Shown: positions 4,949 through 62,449 of the stretch, piece after piece
Position numbering within the stretch: position 1 is the first letter of the stretch
How the letters are laid out: every line of letters starts with the position of its first letter
Virus record (IMG/VR): IMGVR_UViG_647533160_000003
Length of the DNA stretch: 64,000 nucleotides
Reading direction: 5' to 3' (one strand)
DNA from: a virus
Lineage: Duplodnaviria > Heunggongvirae > Uroviricota > Caudoviricetes
Notes under the pieces: generated by a model
The model's input: the letters and a program-made list of their open reading frames with translations, nothing else
Told to the model about the DNA's origin: nothing
Database searches by the model: none
Made by a program: the position numbers and the translations under genes

Positions 4949-5030
4949 GTATCTGGATAAGTAAGTACTAATTTACTATCATTGTGGCGCTGACAGGATG
5001 TTAGCGCCTACTTATTTCAAGGATGAAACA

Positions 5031-5729
5031 ATGGGAATTAAAGCTGATATTCAGAGCTTATCTCCCTCTGCACTCATTGAGTTGTTCGTACTGGATATGT
5101 CGAACACAACTTCAGGGGGGAAGCTATTCTTCCACGCCGGAACAAACGAACTGATGCAACCGGTCGTCTGGCAAGGAGTGACATACGAGCCGTGGCCAAT
5201 CAAAGCATCAGGCTTTGACAAAACTGGCCAGGGAACGTTGCCACGTCCAAAAATTCAGGTATCGAACTTTGCCGGAACCGTCTCTGCGGAAGTTCAAGCG
5301 AACGACGATCTTGTTGGCTGCCGCATTATTCGCAAGATGACGCTGGCTCGCTTCCTCGATGCCGTTAATTTTAAAGACGGCAACCCAACAGCAGATCCAA
5401 ACCAACATTTCCCGGATGAAATGTGGTTTATCGAACAGAAAACTCTCGAAACTCATCAGGTTGTCGAGTTTGAATTGTCCAGTGTGTTCGATTTGATGGG
5501 GGTGCAACTGCCGTATCGTCAGATCATTAAAAACACCTGCCCGTGGAAATACCGAGGGCCAGAATGCGGCTATACCGGTCCATATTTCGACAAAAATAAC
5601 CAGCAGACGTCTATGTCTGGTGCGGATTACTGCACAAAACGTTATGACGCCTGTAATGCGCGTCGGAATTATTTTGCCGACGGTGTGATCCATTTTGGCG
5701 GGTTTATTGGAGCTACGCGGTATGGGTAA
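5031..5729 (+). CDS. minor tail protein, lambda gpL-like (233 aa)
   Basis: VVWQGVTYEPWPIKASGF, ARFLDAVNF and CPWKYRGPECGYTGP blocks match lambda L as recalled; ATG at 5031 with AAGGA upstream preferred over the track start at 4998. Confidence 0.75.
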   Translation: MGIKADIQSLSPSALIELFVLDMSNTTSGGKLFFHAGTNELMQPVVWQGVTYEPWPIKASGFDKTGQGTLPRPKIQVSNFAGTVSAEVQANDDLVGCRIIRKMTLARFLDAVNFKDGNPTADPNQHFPDEMWFIEQKTLETHQVVEFELSSVFDLMGVQLPYRQIIKNTCPWKYRGPECGYTGPYFDKNNQQTSMSGADYCTKRYDACNARRNYFADGVIHFGGFIGATRYG

Positions 5730-6519
5730 TAAAGCAATCCCTGAGCTTGGCTCTGACGTTATGCAGCAAATCTATCTCTGCGCCATAAATCGCTACCCTA
5801 ATGAAGCGTGTGGCTTTCTGGTTAGAACTAATGGCGACAAATATCGCTTTATGGAAGCGCGGAATGTTTCGGAGAACCCGCAGAACACTTTTGTAATGCA
5901 CGTTGACGACATTATGGCGGCAGAGGATGCGGGTGATGTTATCGCAATCTGGCATTCACATACTGATGAATCAGTAGAAGCATCTGATGCCGATCGTGCA
6001 GGCTGCGAAGCGACGGAAGTTCCGTGGATGATTCTGGCTATTCGCAAGAATGTTGAGGGAGACGCCACTTTCCATTTTAGCGAGATGAATGTGATCACAC
6101 CTGATGGTTTCGAAATGCCATACCTGGGCAGACCGTATGTATTTGGCGTATTCGATTGCTGGATGTTGTGTCGGGACTATTTGAAGCGTGAGTTTAACGT
6201 CGAACTAAACCCGAACGCACATCTGCATATTCCATCGTGGTACACCGGCGATAAAGACATTCTCGACCAGAACTACCGAAATGAAGGATTGGTACGGCTT
6301 GCGCCCGGAACAGAGCCTCAACGTGGGGACATCTTCTTTATCCAATACGGGAAAATGCCTGACCACTGCGCTGTTTATATCGGCGATGGAATGATTCTTC
6401 ATCACCAGATCGACCGCCTAAGTTGTCGTGCTTATTACGGCGGAATGTATCAGAAACATACGACGCATCACTTGCGTCACAGAGACTTGCTCAAGGGAGA
6501 TGAGACGTGTCTGAGTTAG
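5722..6519 (+). CDS. tail assembly protein, lambda gpK-like (JAB/MPN plus NlpC/P60-like)
   Basis: HSHTDESVEASDADRAG (JAB/MPN-like metal site) followed by a Cys/His-containing C-terminal half; position between L and I. Start 5722 ATG chosen over in-frame TTG at 5695. Confidence 0.65.
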   Translation: MGNKAIPELGSDVMQQIYLCAINRYPNEACGFLVRTNGDKYRFMEARNVSENPQNTFVMHVDDIMAAEDAGDVIAIWHSHTDESVEASDADRAGCEATEVPWMILAIRKNVEGDATFHFSEMNVITPDGFEMPYLGRPYVFGVFDCWMLCRDYLKREFNVELNPNAHLHIPSWYTGDKDILDQNYRNEGLVRLAPGTEPQRGDIFFIQYGKMPDHCAVYIGDGMILHHQIDRLSCRAYYGGMYQKHTTHHLRHRDLLKGDETCLS

Positions 6520-7100
6520 TTCATGTGCAGCTTGGCGGCCCTATGGCCAAACATTTTGGCCGCCACTGGCATCTAAAGGTTCGTAATACAAAACAGGCTA
6601 TGGATTTAATTGAGGCCAACAAGCCTGGGTTTAAAGCATGGATGAAGCGCAATATCAAAACCTATGACAGATACCACATCCAGATCACCAATAAACAGGG
6701 CCACAAGTGGTCTGTGGACGAGAGTGAATATCAGATGATGGGGCAGTCTGAAAACATTGCCAAAATTCGCATTACCCCTGTTCCGCGAGGAAGCGGCGGA
6801 TCTGCTTTTGGGTGGTTTCAGACGGTTGTTGGAGCCACTTTATTGGTGGCATCTTTTTTTGGCTTGCCCGCTCTTGCCCCTCTCGGTTTGTCACTGATGA
6901 TGGGCGGTATAGCGCAAATCATATCTCCGCAAGCCACTAACGAAAGTGTGAGGCAGGCGGATAACTCGAACTCTTATTACTTCGATGGACCTCAAAACAC
7001 AACAAACCAGGGGAACCCTGTACAGCTTATCTATGGCGAGGAAATTTTAGTTGGCTCACAGGTCGTGAGTTCTTCTATCACCATCGACCAGCTTATGTAA
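6507..7100 (+). CDS. tail assembly protein, lambda gpI-like (197 aa)
   Basis: Position between K-like and J-like genes; hydrophobic C-terminal half; GTG start with AAGGGAGA upstream. Confidence 0.5.
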   Translation: MSELVHVQLGGPMAKHFGRHWHLKVRNTKQAMDLIEANKPGFKAWMKRNIKTYDRYHIQITNKQGHKWSVDESEYQMMGQSENIAKIRITPVPRGSGGSAFGWFQTVVGATLLVASFFGLPALAPLGLSLMMGGIAQIISPQATNESVRQADNSNSYYFDGPQNTTNQGNPVQLIYGEEILVGSQVVSSSITIDQLM

Positions 7101-7117
7101 TCAAGGATTTTTTGGAC

Positions 7118-61064: not shown

Positions 61065-61797
61065 ATTAAGCCGCTCGCAGTTTTTGCAGGTGTTTGCGGT
61101 GATGCAGTCGATAAAACTGATCAATGGGCATACTTCCAATGGTGCGGCTCCACGTATTCTGTGGGGCAGCAATAATATTGACAAAGCACAATTCGCCCCG
61201 TTGCTTGGTCTAATATCCGAGACACCATTGATGCAAAGTTTGGAATCACTGCCGTCTGGATGTATTGCGCCGATCTTGATTAATCCTTTTGTTGAGGGAG
61301 GATATCTTCCCAACGTCGGACCTGGGTTTATCGCAACCCATGAAACTGAAGATCTTAACATTGATAGCGAAGGGTTCTTTGGGGCAATGGATGCGCATCT
61401 CTGTATGGCTTTCACGAACCTTATTCGACTTGCCAATAAGCGAGCGGATAGTTTGGCATCGCCAGGTGATGCTTTTACTGGTTTCCTTATCCAAAGGAGA
61501 GATAAAAAGTACAGTGCGGATAAACTACAGTTTATTGGTAAGTATGGGGAAATGGTAGAAATCGAACTTCAGCTCCCTCATGTTTTAGCAAACGATAGTG
61601 CAGACAGTCGGAGGCTGTTGGGCATCATGCGTCATTTCATAGCAAGTGGCGTTAAACATGCCGTAGATAAACGTGTCACGCAGGAAAATGAGTGTTCAGA
61701 CTTTGCAAACTATCCCCAACCAACGTTGCAAACGGCAATAGTAGCCAATTCGTTGGAGGCGAGATTATTGGAAAACCCTATATGGGGAACATGGTAA
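61054..61797 (+). CDS. hypothetical protein (247 aa)
   Basis: Start overlaps sbcC-like stop; no motif recognised. Confidence 0.4.
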   Translation: MSFKLSRSQFLQVFAVMQSIKLINGHTSNGAAPRILWGSNNIDKAQFAPLLGLISETPLMQSLESLPSGCIAPILINPFVEGGYLPNVGPGFIATHETEDLNIDSEGFFGAMDAHLCMAFTNLIRLANKRADSLASPGDAFTGFLIQRRDKKYSADKLQFIGKYGEMVEIELQLPHVLANDSADSRRLLGIMRHFIASGVKHAVDKRVTQENECSDFANYPQPTLQTAIVANSLEARLLENPIWGTW

Positions 61798-61806
61798 GGA
61801 GACTAT

Positions 61807-62376
61807 ATGAGTAAAAAAATCAGCGTAGTTGGTGTTGATCCCTCAATGAGCAACTTTGGGCTTGCTGTGGGCACTTTAGACCTTGAAACGGACGAACTTG
61901 AGATTCACGGCCTTACTCTTGTTGAGACTAAAGCGGGGAGTAACAAAAAGACAGTTCGTGTGAACAGCGACGATCTGCGCCGTGCCAGTGAAATATGGCG
62001 TGTTGCGAAGCCAATCATTGATAAGGCAAATATGGTTTTTTGTGAGCTACCGGTTGGGAGCCAAAACTCTCGTTCGCAGACGTCTTACGGTATTTGTATC
62101 GGTGTACTTGCGTGTGTGGATAAGCCATTGATCCAGGTTACTCCAAACGAAATTAAGCATTTTGTCGGCAATAAACTTACTACATCGAAAGAAGAGATTA
62201 TCCAGTGGGCTACGAAAAAACACCCTAAAGCACCGTGGCTGCGTCGTAAGCAATCTGGACAGGATGTTCTCGTGAACAAAAACGAACATTTGGCTGATGC
62301 GGTGGCTGCCATCCATACCGGTATGCAAACGGATCAGTTCCGCCAGGTGCGCGATGTTCTTAAGTCTCTCATTTGA
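61807..62376 (+). CDS. RuvC-like Holliday junction resolvase
   Basis: N-terminal VVGVDPSMSNFGLAV resembles RuvC ILGIDPGSRVTGYGV; C-terminal HLADAVAAIHTG resembles the RuvC catalytic helix. Confidence 0.6.
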   Translation: MSKKISVVGVDPSMSNFGLAVGTLDLETDELEIHGLTLVETKAGSNKKTVRVNSDDLRRASEIWRVAKPIIDKANMVFCELPVGSQNSRSQTSYGICIGVLACVDKPLIQVTPNEIKHFVGNKLTTSKEEIIQWATKKHPKAPWLRRKQSGQDVLVNKNEHLADAVAAIHTGMQTDQFRQVRDVLKSLI

Positions 62377-62449
62377 TTTTATTGATAGGTAAGTGCTTAT
62401 CTATTAACATGGGCCACTATATTTAGTGGCCCTCTTTATTTGGTGATAC

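Follow-up and report, generated by a model that had tools for sequence, protein, structure and literature searches.

Dispersed 20-bp dyads in an SSU5/pHCM2-type phage-plasmid as candidate operators of an Xre-type repressor

The 64-kb window analysed here, a single stretch of 64,000 nucleotides, belongs to an SSU5/pHCM2-type phage-plasmid with ~95% identity to Escherichia phage Cyrano and carries a recurrent 20-bp palindrome, ATA(A/G)GTAAGTACTTAC(C/T)TAT, at 14 solid and 2-3 weaker sites (Table 1). Nearly all the gaps that separate the lytic genes hold a copy. What sequence analysis establishes is a statistically supported motif that is confined to gene gaps, conserved and co-varying across clades, built of two arms that vary independently, and present at the predicted promoter of a repressor gene. 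The dyads point to binding sites of a dimeric DNA-binding protein. The reading that we favour, with confidence and doubt about equally balanced, is that they form the genome-wide operator set of one such protein, most likely the Xre-type repressor encoded at 39133-39525. If this is true, ~90 kb of phage genes would be kept silent while the element persists as a plasmid. No published description of this dyad set was found in the literature.

Word counts and a weight matrix both place the motif far above chance, confirming an earlier sequence-only reading that had noticed a recurrent intergenic dyad. In word searches, TGATAGGTAAG with at most one mismatch has 6 matches against 0.8 expected and ATAAGTA has 21 against 6.3, while the 24-mer TGATAGGTAAGTACTTACCTATCA is found at 10 positions with at most 7 mismatches. 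Thirteen sites reach scores of at least 19 with an iterated symmetric weight matrix, compared with a best score of 18.8 and a mean maximum of 11.2 in Markov shuffles (n = 100). With the last base of the left arm taken as the site centre, these 13 strong sites are centred at 4966, 11882, 17266, 23489, 28757, 29634, 32116, 35756, 48728, 52249, 54202, 57710 and 62394. A copy centred at 42217 scores lower, yet it is kept in SSU5, and weak copies centred at 23361 and 53875 also lie in gene gaps, the former kept in SSU5 and Klebsiella. When enrichment in intergenic over coding DNA was looked at, 12 of the 13 strong sites fell in non-coding DNA, which on a mechanical ORF map makes up 9.7% of the window (binomial P = 9e-12); the thirteenth (35756) overlaps only one ORF, whose start was probably called too far upstream. 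Fourteen of the 15 copies that had been picked out by eye hold. The exception, at 20155, is no dyad, and only a right half, ACCTAYCATT, is present and conserved there, adjoining the parA promoter block.

Table 1. Dyad sites and the putative repressor gene in the 64-kb window, with weight-matrix scores
Feature	Position	Strand	Score	Remarks
Dyad, gap between tail genes M and L	4957..4976		22.1	Intergenic; right arm shifted 3 bp; followed by terminator-like hairpin 4986-5008 (-17 kcal/mol); kept in Cyrano, SSU5, Klebsiella
Dyad, gap between tail gene J and tail-fibre gene	11873..11892		26.7	Syntenic in Cyrano, SSU5; followed by hairpin GGTGGGC...GCCCACC (-14.8 kcal/mol)
Dyad, upstream of holin gene	17257..17276		22.1	Syntenic in Cyrano, SSU5, Klebsiella; stop TGA of upstream gene (17255-17257) in left flank, ending at first base of site
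Weak variant ATAAATACTAAGTTACTTAT, sharing gap with 23480..23499	23352..23371		16.8	Below shuffle maximum; conserved in SSU5 (33469) and Klebsiella (74867)
Dyad at RBS of gene before helicase	23480..23499		22.4	SD +12..+17, ATG +23
Dyad, then extended -10 TGTAAGAAT starting at +16	28748..28767		23.4	TG-extended -10 kept in SSU5, Klebsiella, CP067502
Dyad, good left arm and degenerate right arm	29625..29644		19.0	Intergenic; upstream of 156-aa gene before ligase
Dyad before conserved non-coding and tRNA region	32107..32126		30.9	TGTATAAGAT at +17; tRNAs beyond, at 32874-33431
Dyad, divergent gap between minus-strand genes (34848-35714) and plus-strand gene cluster	35747..35766		29.0	Klebsiella counterpart at 85606, before phoH
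Xre-type HTH gene, 130 aa, putative prophage repressor	39133..39525	-		Matches to HTH_19/HTH_37 and PHROG 8
Variant site, core GGTAAGTGCTTACC (39550-39563), on predicted repressor transcript start	39546..39569			
Weaker dyad, gap between cobT-like and cobS-like genes	42208..42227		16.9	
Dyad upstream of gp32-like SSB gene	48719..48738		29.3	Deviant right arm CTGATCTAT itself conserved (alignment, 43 relatives)
Dyad directly 3' of terminator 52204-52224	52240..52259		29.6	
Weak candidate, left arm only, in gene gap	53866..53885		14.5	Score in chance range
Dyad, next small membrane-protein gene starting at 54214	54193..54212		23.1	Start codon 1 bp past right arm, without RBS; likewise in SSU5, Cyrano
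Dyad upstream of sbcD-like gene	57701..57720		27.6	TGTATATT at +17; at same offset TGTCATAAT in SSU5, TGCCATAAT in Klebsiella
Dyad, gap between ruvC-like gene and nrdA	62385..62404		28.9	Terminator 62411-62432 next; same arrangement in SSU5 and Klebsiella

Cyrano, SSU5, Klebsiella pJN2-26 and CP067502 carry this dyad motif in the same slots between genes, with ~25 sites per genome. Phage-plasmids of Acinetobacter and Aeromonas carry altered dyads, CAGTCAGTACTGACTG in Acinetobacter subgroup 1, TAGTAAGCGCTTACTA in Acinetobacter subgroup 2 and CAGTAAnnnnTTACTG in Aeromonas, in slots that are partly the same as in the enteric elements. The slots common to clades include the gap between terL and portal, the position 3' of the capsid gene, where a terminator comes next, the gap between cobT and cobS, and the regions upstream of sbcD, thyX and parB; in Acinetobacter the cobT-cobS and sbcD slots hold sites at 16801 and 30740. 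In an Acinetobacter relative 24 of 26 sites are intergenic (P = 2e-20), though the motif is open in two of three reading frames. Between clades the dyad co-varies as a dyad, with both arms altered together.

Joint alteration of the arms would also suit palindromes that act in RNA or as extruded hairpins, whether in intercistronic processing by RNase III or RNase E, as terminator helpers or as translational operators, and the sites are transcribed within polycistronic units, often adjoining RBSs or terminators. We nevertheless find this explanation scarcely credible. Symmetric change of two arms is expected equally of a dimer site, and inside genomes there is no compensatory variation: across 72 distinct sites, mirrored positions form 622 Watson-Crick pairs compared with 633 expected under independence of the arms. 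The RNA hairpins of 13 sites average only -2.7 kcal/mol and 3 of the 13 form none, far from a stable fold, and no Rfam family matches the sites. Arms carrying several mismatches are kept in that form among relatives, as at 48719-48738. Half-sites match one consensus independently, the flanks are symmetric in all clades (A-rich on the left, T-rich on the right), and the information profile is symmetric as well. Because the arms deviate independently and the RNA hairpins are weak, the dyads are better explained as sites of a dimeric protein on double-stranded DNA than as RNA or cruciform elements. This independence, the symmetric flanks and the co-variation between clades support the earlier proposal that the dyad is the operator of a dimeric regulator. 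That the halves are reverse complements of each other is borne out too, which makes the accompanying remark that copies occur in both orientations meaningless.

The same reading had offered a phage-specific promoter class as an alternative, with copies nearly always 10-60 bp upstream of a start codon. Core-to-start distances really range from 1 to 112 bp, and only a subset of sites, those with a one-sided extended -10, suggests directional transcription that starts at a set distance on the gene side alone. TG-extended -10 elements starting at +15..+17 accompany 13 of 55 sites; on the mirrored side the count is 1 of 55. The corresponding counts for -10-like hexamers at +18..+25 are 22 of 49 sites downstream and 23 of 49 mirrored, and a -10-like TATCAT inside the arm is found at 27 of 49 sites on the gene-proximal side and 33 of 49 on the other. 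Most sites have no recognisable sigma-70 promoter, and no good -35 lies beside the sites. Too little room for a promoter and leader is left before the next gene at the terL-portal site (SD at +15..+23, ATG at +27), at 54202 (ATG at +12) and at 23489 (SD at +12), implying that such sites are transcribed through. About one site in five is followed within the next 10-20 bp by a strong terminator-like hairpin. Since some sites abut the next RBS or precede a terminator, these lie inside transcription units. With a fixed-distance gene-side -10 in a subset only and several sites lacking promoter room, the reading of the palindrome as a promoter class is not supported. A transcriptional rather than translational role, which had been argued from the copy before the tRNA region, appears to be the better reading.

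T4 middle promoters combine a MotA box at -30 with a -10 element, and P1 late promoters combine an Lpa inverted repeat near -22 with a -10. The dyads could similarly bind an activator that the phage encodes and produces only during lytic growth, and so mark phage-specific promoters without a -35; we consider this explanation unlikely. In its favour, the subset with a TG-extended -10 at a fixed offset has its dyad centre near -30.5, the position of the T4 MotA box, and so resembles MotA and Lpa promoters in having a phage-specific element near -30 in place of the -35 hexamer. Many copies precede replication and recombination genes, as T4 middle promoters do, and the phage carries T4-like genes of both kinds. 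The genes flanked by sites are the lytic ones, silent in the lysogen (PMC9928086), terminators directly upstream of some sites (52204-52224 before 52240-52259) imply re-initiation, and SSU5 grows lytically without the repressor while keeping the sites. However, the profile is symmetric and most sites lack the fixed-distance -10. Where a site abuts or overlaps the next RBS or start codon, a transcript starting downstream of the dyad would miss it, and the strong hairpins beyond about a fifth of the sites also count against an activator. It would be unusual for a dimeric activator to be centred at -30.5, where it overlaps the position of sigma region 4 and the spacer. The genes of the candidate activators are themselves preceded by a site and silent in the lysogen, and the invariant dyad on the repressor promoter would be unexplained unless the activator also shuts off the repressor. 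The MotA box, moreover, is asymmetric, spans 9 bp and is recognised by a monomer acting with AsiA, whereas some of the dyads cannot serve as promoters of the following gene. Homologues of MotA, AsiA and Lpa were absent from Pfam and PHROG scans of candidate regulators and from the relatives' annotations. Among the candidate regulators, the same scans revealed neither a sigma factor nor an RNA polymerase in the enteric elements, in which many genes have no assigned function, and enteric homologues are lacking for the sigma-70-family gene found in the Acinetobacter relatives.

For the favoured reading, that of repressor operators, the HTH protein at 39133-39525, already named as a possible binder, is the best candidate, judging from the core dyad on its own predicted promoter and from its conserved recognition helix. 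This minus-strand promoter is predicted at 39593-39566 (TTTACA-16-TAATAT), so that an HTH protein encoded by the element has a site on its own predicted promoter. The core dyad (39550-39563) and the adjoining GATATTACA are invariant in 8 relatives, whose repressors are 57-99% identical, although the site lacks the outer ATA/TAT positions that are best conserved in the dispersed sites. The protein has a single five-helix Xre domain plus helices, in a fold resembling the dimeric C-proteins, HigA and the lambda and 434 repressors. G38-P56, comprising helix 3 and its surroundings, is invariant in 22 homologues, and residue 41 is N or Q with motif AGTAAG and R with motif AGTCAG, a comparison of four clades only. 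No protein is more diverged than the repressor between the Acinetobacter subgroups with different dyads; its identity there is 30%, compared with 56-80% for ParB, terminase and others. It co-occurs almost 1:1 with the SSB gene across ~800 plasmids. In the Cyrano lysogen its expression is 10-fold over background (PMC9928086), and by our own count from the gene table of that study and the Cyrano sites, 12 of the 14 genes above background have no upstream site.

Every dyad-bearing clade also encodes further DNA-binding candidates, two ParB-like proteins and an 88-aa protein upstream of terS; the two ParB_N proteins are encoded outside the 64-kb window. On IncP plasmid RK2, KorB silences genes globally from a dozen-plus scattered copies of one palindrome, the OB sites, some at promoters and some distant. 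The binder here could likewise be a ParB-like protein, acting as a KorB/OB-type silencer or loading as at parS, or the 88-aa protein, with silencing, chromosome organisation or packaging as the outcome; we hold this to be decidedly improbable. The ~25 dispersed palindromes recall the 12 OB sites of KorB on RK2, homologues of ParB1, ParB2 and the 88-aa protein occur in both enteric and Acinetobacter elements, all with the dyad system, and ParB1 has a match in the 100 kb of SSU5 examined. In three clades parB1 directly follows a site (Cyrano 105103; Acinetobacter 69365 and 72429), and the 88-aa homologue is only 36% identical between the Acinetobacter subgroups with different dyads. ParB1 and ParB2, on the other hand, are 56-65% identical in that comparison, well above the HTH protein, and the Pfam and PHROG scans found neither an HTH nor any further DNA-binding domain in the 88-aa protein. 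A separate pair, parA and a 119-aa gene preceded by a conserved block of its own, has the look of the true partition system. KorB belongs to the ParB family and is a CTP-dependent clamp on a GC-containing 13-mer palindrome, and the ParB-like proteins here are weaker candidates than the Xre protein, whose autoregulation is the simpler account of the dyad on the repressor promoter. None of the three genes is among those expressed in the Cyrano lysogen (PMC9928086), so their products could not maintain silencing.

We infer the identity of the binder, repression on binding and the roadblock step from sequence. In the lysogenic (plasmid) state, the Xre-type repressor would occupy ~25 sites across the lytic genes. 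Where a site closely precedes a TG-extended -10, placing its centre near -30, the bound repressor would keep RNA polymerase from binding. At sites inside operons, after a stop codon and often at the next RBS or before a terminator, it would block elongating polymerase, as at L5 stoperators, and the site on its own promoter would provide negative autoregulation. Some observations fit this account less easily. SSU5, a plaque-forming isolate, has no repressor homologue and retains all sites at full strength; its lack of the gene fits a recent deletion, like that of D29 relative to L5, and is compatible too with a core lytic-cycle protein as the binder. The repressors of the E. coli and Klebsiella elements are only 57% identical with the same motif in both, whereas immunity repressors usually diverge in step with their operators. 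One repressor acting directly on early and late genes leaves no obvious temporal cascade, which counts against the account.

Among known systems, the dyad set is best read as resembling the P1 C1 operators and the mycobacteriophage stoperators while differing from both in its dyad symmetry. P1, also an enterobacterial plasmid-prophage, has a master repressor on 22 dispersed operators and no single switch region (PMC8546580). The P1 operator is, however, an asymmetric 17-mer, ATTGCTCTAATAAATTT, C1 is not of the Xre type, and sequence similarity is absent. P1 controls its late genes indirectly through Lpa and a class of late promoters, whereas here one dyad is found at replication, head, tail and lysis genes. 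Phage L5 and other Cluster A mycobacteriophages likewise have over 20 related repressor sites, mostly in the short spaces that separate genes, in early and late regions alike, and L5 gp71 has a site at a promoter besides the dispersed ones, as here (PMC9283540, PMC5712189). The elements studied here share with stoperators the many sites in short gaps inside transcription units. They differ in that L5 sites are asymmetric 13-bp elements that function in only one orientation, bound by a monomer with two DNA-binding domains, whereas 20-bp dyads in a symmetric context imply dimeric binding that does not depend on orientation. Here the host is Gram-negative, the prophage is a plasmid and the proteins are unrelated, the present one having the Xre five-helix fold. 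Their 20-bp dyads and single-Xre-domain candidate would make the set an analogue of the stoperators and not a member. D29, a lytic relative of L5 that lacks the repressor gene, retains the sites, as SSU5 does here, and the consensus, which in Cluster A varies between related phages, varies here between clades.

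Aligned copies of the dyad dispersed over the window give a 20-bp consensus, ATA(A/G)GTAAGTACTTAC(C/T)TAT, outside which lie weaker TG/CA positions, an A-rich left flank and a T-rich right flank. The words quoted in the sequence-only reading are strongly over-represented in the window. Our symmetric matrix identifies 13 sites at a score of at least 19, against a top score of 18.8 and a mean maximum of 11.2 in 100 shuffled sequences. As that reading had claimed, the sites prefer gene gaps: non-coding DNA makes up 9.7% of the window and holds 12 of the 13 strong sites (P = 9e-12), and the thirteenth overlaps only one ORF, the start of which was probably called too early. 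Fourteen of its 15 listed positions are genuine copies; at 20155 only a right half-site (ACCTAYCATT) is found, beside a conserved parA promoter block. This ~100-bp block upstream of parA, which comes next (20174-20284) and is near-identical in the E. coli, SSU5 and Klebsiella elements, is probably a par promoter or operator, or a centromere. Site 42217 has a lower matrix score yet is conserved in SSU5, weak copies are present at 23361 and 53875, and a variant core lies at 39550-39563. Counts of exact palindromes (a word, a gap and its reverse complement) brought the motif out and recovered its Acinetobacter variants de novo; whole-sequence 8-mer enrichment did not bring it out because codon-driven words dominate.

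By its sequence, the window is part of an SSU5/pHCM2-type phage-plasmid, with Escherichia phage Cyrano (pLF82) as its closest annotated relative (~95% identity). It starts inside the tape-measure gene, followed by tail genes, lysis genes, parA and the helicase, primase and ligase genes. Beyond the Xre-type helix-turn-helix (HTH) gene come cobT/cobS-like genes and then DNA polymerase III alpha, and at the window's end lie a T4-like recombination set (UvsY, gp32-like SSB, RecA/UvsX-like, SbcCD), repA and the start of nrdA. Between a glutaredoxin-like gene and the integrase region, 625 N mask positions 36372-36996, and ORF calls spanning this run are meaningless.

Positions of genes and terminators (window coordinates unless another genome is named)
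Feature	Position	Strand	Remarks
tRNA cluster	32874-33431		after ligase gene
Integrase	38035-39138		neighbour of Xre-type HTH gene
Xre-type HTH gene	39133-39525	minus	divergent
Bidirectional terminators	47357-47377, 52204-52224, 53343-53362, 54946-54969	both	GC-rich hairpins and T-runs at module boundaries
173-aa FljA-like protein	L003 (Cyrano) 780-1301; SSU5_121; pJN226_0046		

With a score cut-off of 15, the same matrix gives ~24 sites for Cyrano and 26 for SSU5 (first 100 kb); the Klebsiella phage-plasmid pJN2-26 has 23 over its first 100 kb. The same gene gaps are occupied in all three, and the shared gaps extend to the head and packaging region outside the window (terL|portal, after the capsid gene, before the tail genes). 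The motif is still in use in a Klebsiella element of lower similarity (SSB only 42% identical). When exact palindromes were counted without bias, phage-plasmids that are further removed but have the same gene order proved to carry related yet different dyads: CAGTCAGTACTGACTG in Acinetobacter subgroup 1 (26 sites in 100 kb, with 24 between genes; P = 2e-20), TAGTAAGCGCTTACTA in Acinetobacter subgroup 2 (27 sites at up to 2 mismatches in 100 kb) and CAGTAAnnnnTTACTG in an Aeromonas plasmid. Slots in common with the enteric elements include terL|portal, the position after the capsid gene that is followed by a terminator, cobT|cobS, and those upstream of sbcD, thyX and parB1. Two of the three reading frames of the Acinetobacter motif are open and therefore stop codons do not force its exclusion from coding sequence, which argues for a role linked to the borders of genes.

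A palindrome of this kind might act as an RNA or cruciform element or as a protein-binding site on duplex DNA. Among 72 distinct sites from four genomes, Watson-Crick pairs at mirrored positions number 622 compared with 633 expected for independent arms, with no position exceeding z = 2 and no correlation between A/G at -7 and C/T at +7 (positions counted from the dyad centre). RNA folding of 13 sites gave a mean of -2.7 kcal/mol, three of them having no fold at all, an Rfam search returned no family match, and the deviant arms of site 48719-48738 are kept as such in 43 relatives. Arms that vary independently, weak folds, conserved deviant arms and the missing Rfam match are together the signature of a symmetric dimer that contacts two half-sites on duplex DNA and not of a hairpin. 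The hairpin or RNA reading was rejected on the lack of covariation, the weak folds and the Rfam result, and we consider any RNA or cruciform function very improbable. The dyad is very probably the regulatory site of a dimeric DNA-binding protein.

The context around the dyads is symmetric as well. The sole -10-like hexamer enriched at a fixed position, TAT(C/T)AT, lies inside the arm, on the gene-distal side in 33 of 49 sites and on the gene-proximal side in 27 of 49, and no -35 is present at the sites. With an internal TATCAT equally good on both sides and no -35, we rejected the palindrome itself as a promoter; the phage-specific promoter class proposed from sequence alone is not supported. 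A scan with the sigma-70 consensus gave fewer promoter-like matches overall than shuffled sequences, and the few that coincide with sites are built from the palindrome's own parts; a fixed downstream -10 common to all sites was not found. A TG-extended -10 (TGTAAGAAT, TGTCATAAT, TGTAATAAT and similar) starts at +15 to +17 in 13 of 55 sites, compared with 1 of 55 on the mirrored side. These cases represent about seven independent gene slots, mainly DNA-metabolism genes and the tRNA region, and place the dyad centre near -30.5, over the -35/spacer region of an extended -10 promoter.

Other sites cannot serve the next gene as a promoter. At terL|portal the ribosome-binding site lies at +15 to +23 and the ATG at +27, alike in SSU5, Klebsiella and Acinetobacter; the ATG follows site 54202 at +12 with no ribosome-binding site, and at 23489 the ribosome-binding site begins at +12. 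About one-fifth of the sites are followed after 10-20 bp by a strong terminator-like hairpin, at five conserved slots (M|L, J|fibre, after the capsid gene, before the tail gene, ruvC|nrdA), an order also kept in Acinetobacter. Sites also tend to be near the upstream stop codon (median ~16 bp in Acinetobacter). The proximity to start codons, ribosome-binding sites and upstream stops and the trailing terminators thus place these sites inside transcription units and not at promoters of the next gene. Activator sites marking a class of lytic promoters that lack a -35, as with T4 MotA or P1 Lpa, would agree with the extended -10 subset and with the behaviour of SSU5 described below, but are at odds with the symmetric context and with sites that abut ribosome-binding sites or precede terminators; we regard such activation as unlikely. 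A phage sigma factor of the Acinetobacter elements was rejected as the reader of the motif, since the enteric elements carry the motif and have no detectable sigma homologue. In Acinetobacter phage-plasmids (L091 17831-19227; L089 18130-19578), a 226-aa protein sits after this sigma-70-family gene and the two are possibly a sigma/anti-sigma pair. A 67-aa Cys-rich ORF between cobS and dnaE (43524-43727) weakly matches the N-terminus of the 226-aa protein (tblastn E = 0.26).

Most likely, the dyads form a network of operators for the prophage repressor, for which the Xre-type HTH protein is our candidate. We aligned the gap between its gene and the divergent 70-aa gene from eight relatives with Xre proteins 57-99% identical. 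The top-conserved block, tGGTAAGTGCTTACyGATATTACA...GTTGTAAAG, includes the dyad's 14-bp centre, immediately after a minus-strand promoter predicted at 39593-39566 (TTTACA-16-TAATAT). The dyad would accordingly lie across the point where the repressor transcript begins, as is classical for autoregulation. Arm independence, symmetry and this dyad at the Xre promoter favour the other suggestion of the sequence-only reading, an operator for a dimeric regulator. The gap between the repressor gene and orf70 (39600-39770) contains more half-site-like words (39610-39628, 39665-39676, 39737-46) and, ahead of orf70, a conserved block TGATAT-N-TATTGATACA-ATAGGTAGTAGTATT, possibly an early lytic promoter with additional operators.

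The protein itself is consistent with such a role. Residues G38-P56 (helix 3 and its surroundings) are invariant in 22 Xre homologues while the remainder diverges, and pLDDT exceeds 89 for residues 21-80 of the predicted fold. This fold resembles dimeric operator-binding Xre proteins (restriction-modification controller proteins, HigA, ClgR, lambda/434 repressors), all generic Xre relatives with weak E-values and TM-scores to the target of 0.7-0.78; a PDB sequence search with the repressor gave no match. The Xre and SSB genes co-occur near 1:1 in ~800 plasmids of Klebsiella, Escherichia, Enterobacter, Yersinia and Salmonella. Between the Acinetobacter subgroups with different dyads, the Xre protein is the most diverged protein examined (30% identical), compared with 56-80% for ParB, terminase, portal, capsid and NrdA and 98% for the adjacent integrase; the step from integrase to repressor (L089 12326-13742, L091 12295-13638) is an abrupt mosaic boundary at the immunity region. 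Residue 41, just ahead of helix 3, is N/Q in three AGTAAG clades and R in the AGTCAG clade. Amides pair with adenine and arginine with guanine, and the tracking of the motif base by residue 41 is suggestive only. In the Cyrano lysogen, the Xre-type gene is expressed 10-fold above background (PMC9928086). By our own count, with the gene table of that paper set against the Cyrano sites, 18 of 20 strong sites precede silent genes, and 12 of the 14 genes above background have no upstream site.

SSU5, a plaque-forming isolate, lacks ~6.7 kb including the Xre gene yet retains all sites. The segment missing from its virion genome holds phoH, glutaredoxin, integrase, the Xre repressor and orf70 and is carried by essentially all plasmid-borne relatives (compared at L004 42525-42761 in SSU5, L007 34122-41071 in Klebsiella and 33431-40082 in the window). 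SSU5 appears to be a clear-plaque derivative with a deleted repressor, in parallel with D29, which arose from an L5-like phage by loss of the repressor and retained its stoperators (PMC5712189). Its sites are equally compatible with such a deletion and with a binder belonging to the lytic programme. Conservation in all clades extends to two ParB-like proteins and to the 88-aa product of a gene upstream of terS (36% identity between the Acinetobacter subgroups), and their three genes are absent from the lysogen-expressed genes in the Cyrano gene table (PMC9928086); we judge a ParB/KorB-type or other conserved binder to be quite unlikely. The tyrosine recombinase beside the repressor was set aside by reasoning alone, as 25 recombination sites per replicon would be destructive. 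The FljA-like protein, a 71-aa 'regulator', orf70 and Cra are weaker candidates because tblastn found no homologue of them in an Acinetobacter element that has the dyad system. The conserved 173-aa FljA-like protein matches the Pfam family 'Repressor of phase-1 flagellin' (E = 1e-80) and its C-terminus weakly resembles Hfq; in the Acinetobacter and Aeromonas relatives, a gene close to the helicase is annotated as Hfq-like.

The motif itself, where it lies, how it is conserved, its symmetry, the independence of its arms and the promoter-proximal geometry are established by sequence analysis. For the Xre repressor we infer binding, repression, a roadblock step and the identity of the binder, and the model as a whole is, in our estimate, evenly poised. 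An Xre dimer would bind ~25 dyads, at extended -10 promoters excluding RNA polymerase from its -30.5 position, inside operons blocking read-through, and at its own promoter exerting autoregulation. Once the repressor is lost, whether through induction or, as in SSU5, through deletion, the entire lytic programme would be released.

The nearest known analogues are the 22 C1 operators dispersed over the P1 genome (PMC8546580) and the >20 stoperators of Cluster A mycobacteriophages (PMC9283540, PMC5712189), both asymmetric and read by proteins unrelated to the Xre candidate. Stoperators are read by a monomer and depend on orientation, whereas the present sites are dyad-symmetric with a putative small Xre dimer; P1 controls its late genes indirectly, whereas the present dyads flank early and late genes alike. 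The present system is therefore an analogue and not a member of these systems. Literature searches on SSU5, pHCM2 or phage-plasmid promoters, operators and palindromes, and with the motif string, found, in the papers covered, no description of the dyad, nor of how SSU5-type elements are silenced as plasmids and switch to lytic growth.

We tentatively propose that a stoperator-like Xre-dimer network silences ~90 kb of lytic genes in SSU5-type, Acinetobacter and Aeromonas phage-plasmids. The ~25 dyads after stop codons would block both initiation and read-through, and immunity groups would be set by what the repressor recognises (AGTAAG, AGTCAG and so on). If true, such a network would be the first of its kind in Gram-negative hosts and a dyad-symmetric form, working in either orientation, of a mechanism otherwise known only from mycobacteriophages, and an intra-operon elongation block would extend the stoperator principle beyond them. 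SSU5-type elements, which include pHCM2 of S. Typhi and pMT1 of Y. pestis, are among the commonest phage-plasmids of Enterobacteriaceae, and many carry resistance genes (Klebsiella, E. coli). With an operator consensus, ~25 sites mapped in each genome and a candidate repressor identified, the regulon is open to direct testing. The clade-specific dyads may allow sequence-based prediction of immunity or incompatibility groups and offer a natural series for the co-evolution of an operator network and its repressor.

Two stretches near sites are themselves conserved. From site 32107-32126 to the tRNA cluster, the non-coding stretch ~32140-32870 opens with a block, GACTTTGTTTTCGTTGAGACGCGACTGTTTGAAC, conserved in the E. 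coli, SSU5 and Klebsiella elements; Rfam holds no family matching it, and the tRNA region is expressed in the Cyrano lysogen. The 5' leader of the gp32-like SSB gene (48740-48822) is almost invariant in 43 relatives and contains the small hairpins GCTCGAAAGAGC and GCGC-ATA-GCGC, the first of which retains its stem despite changes in the loop and to wobble pairs. The leader may serve as a translational operator, as in T4 gene 32.
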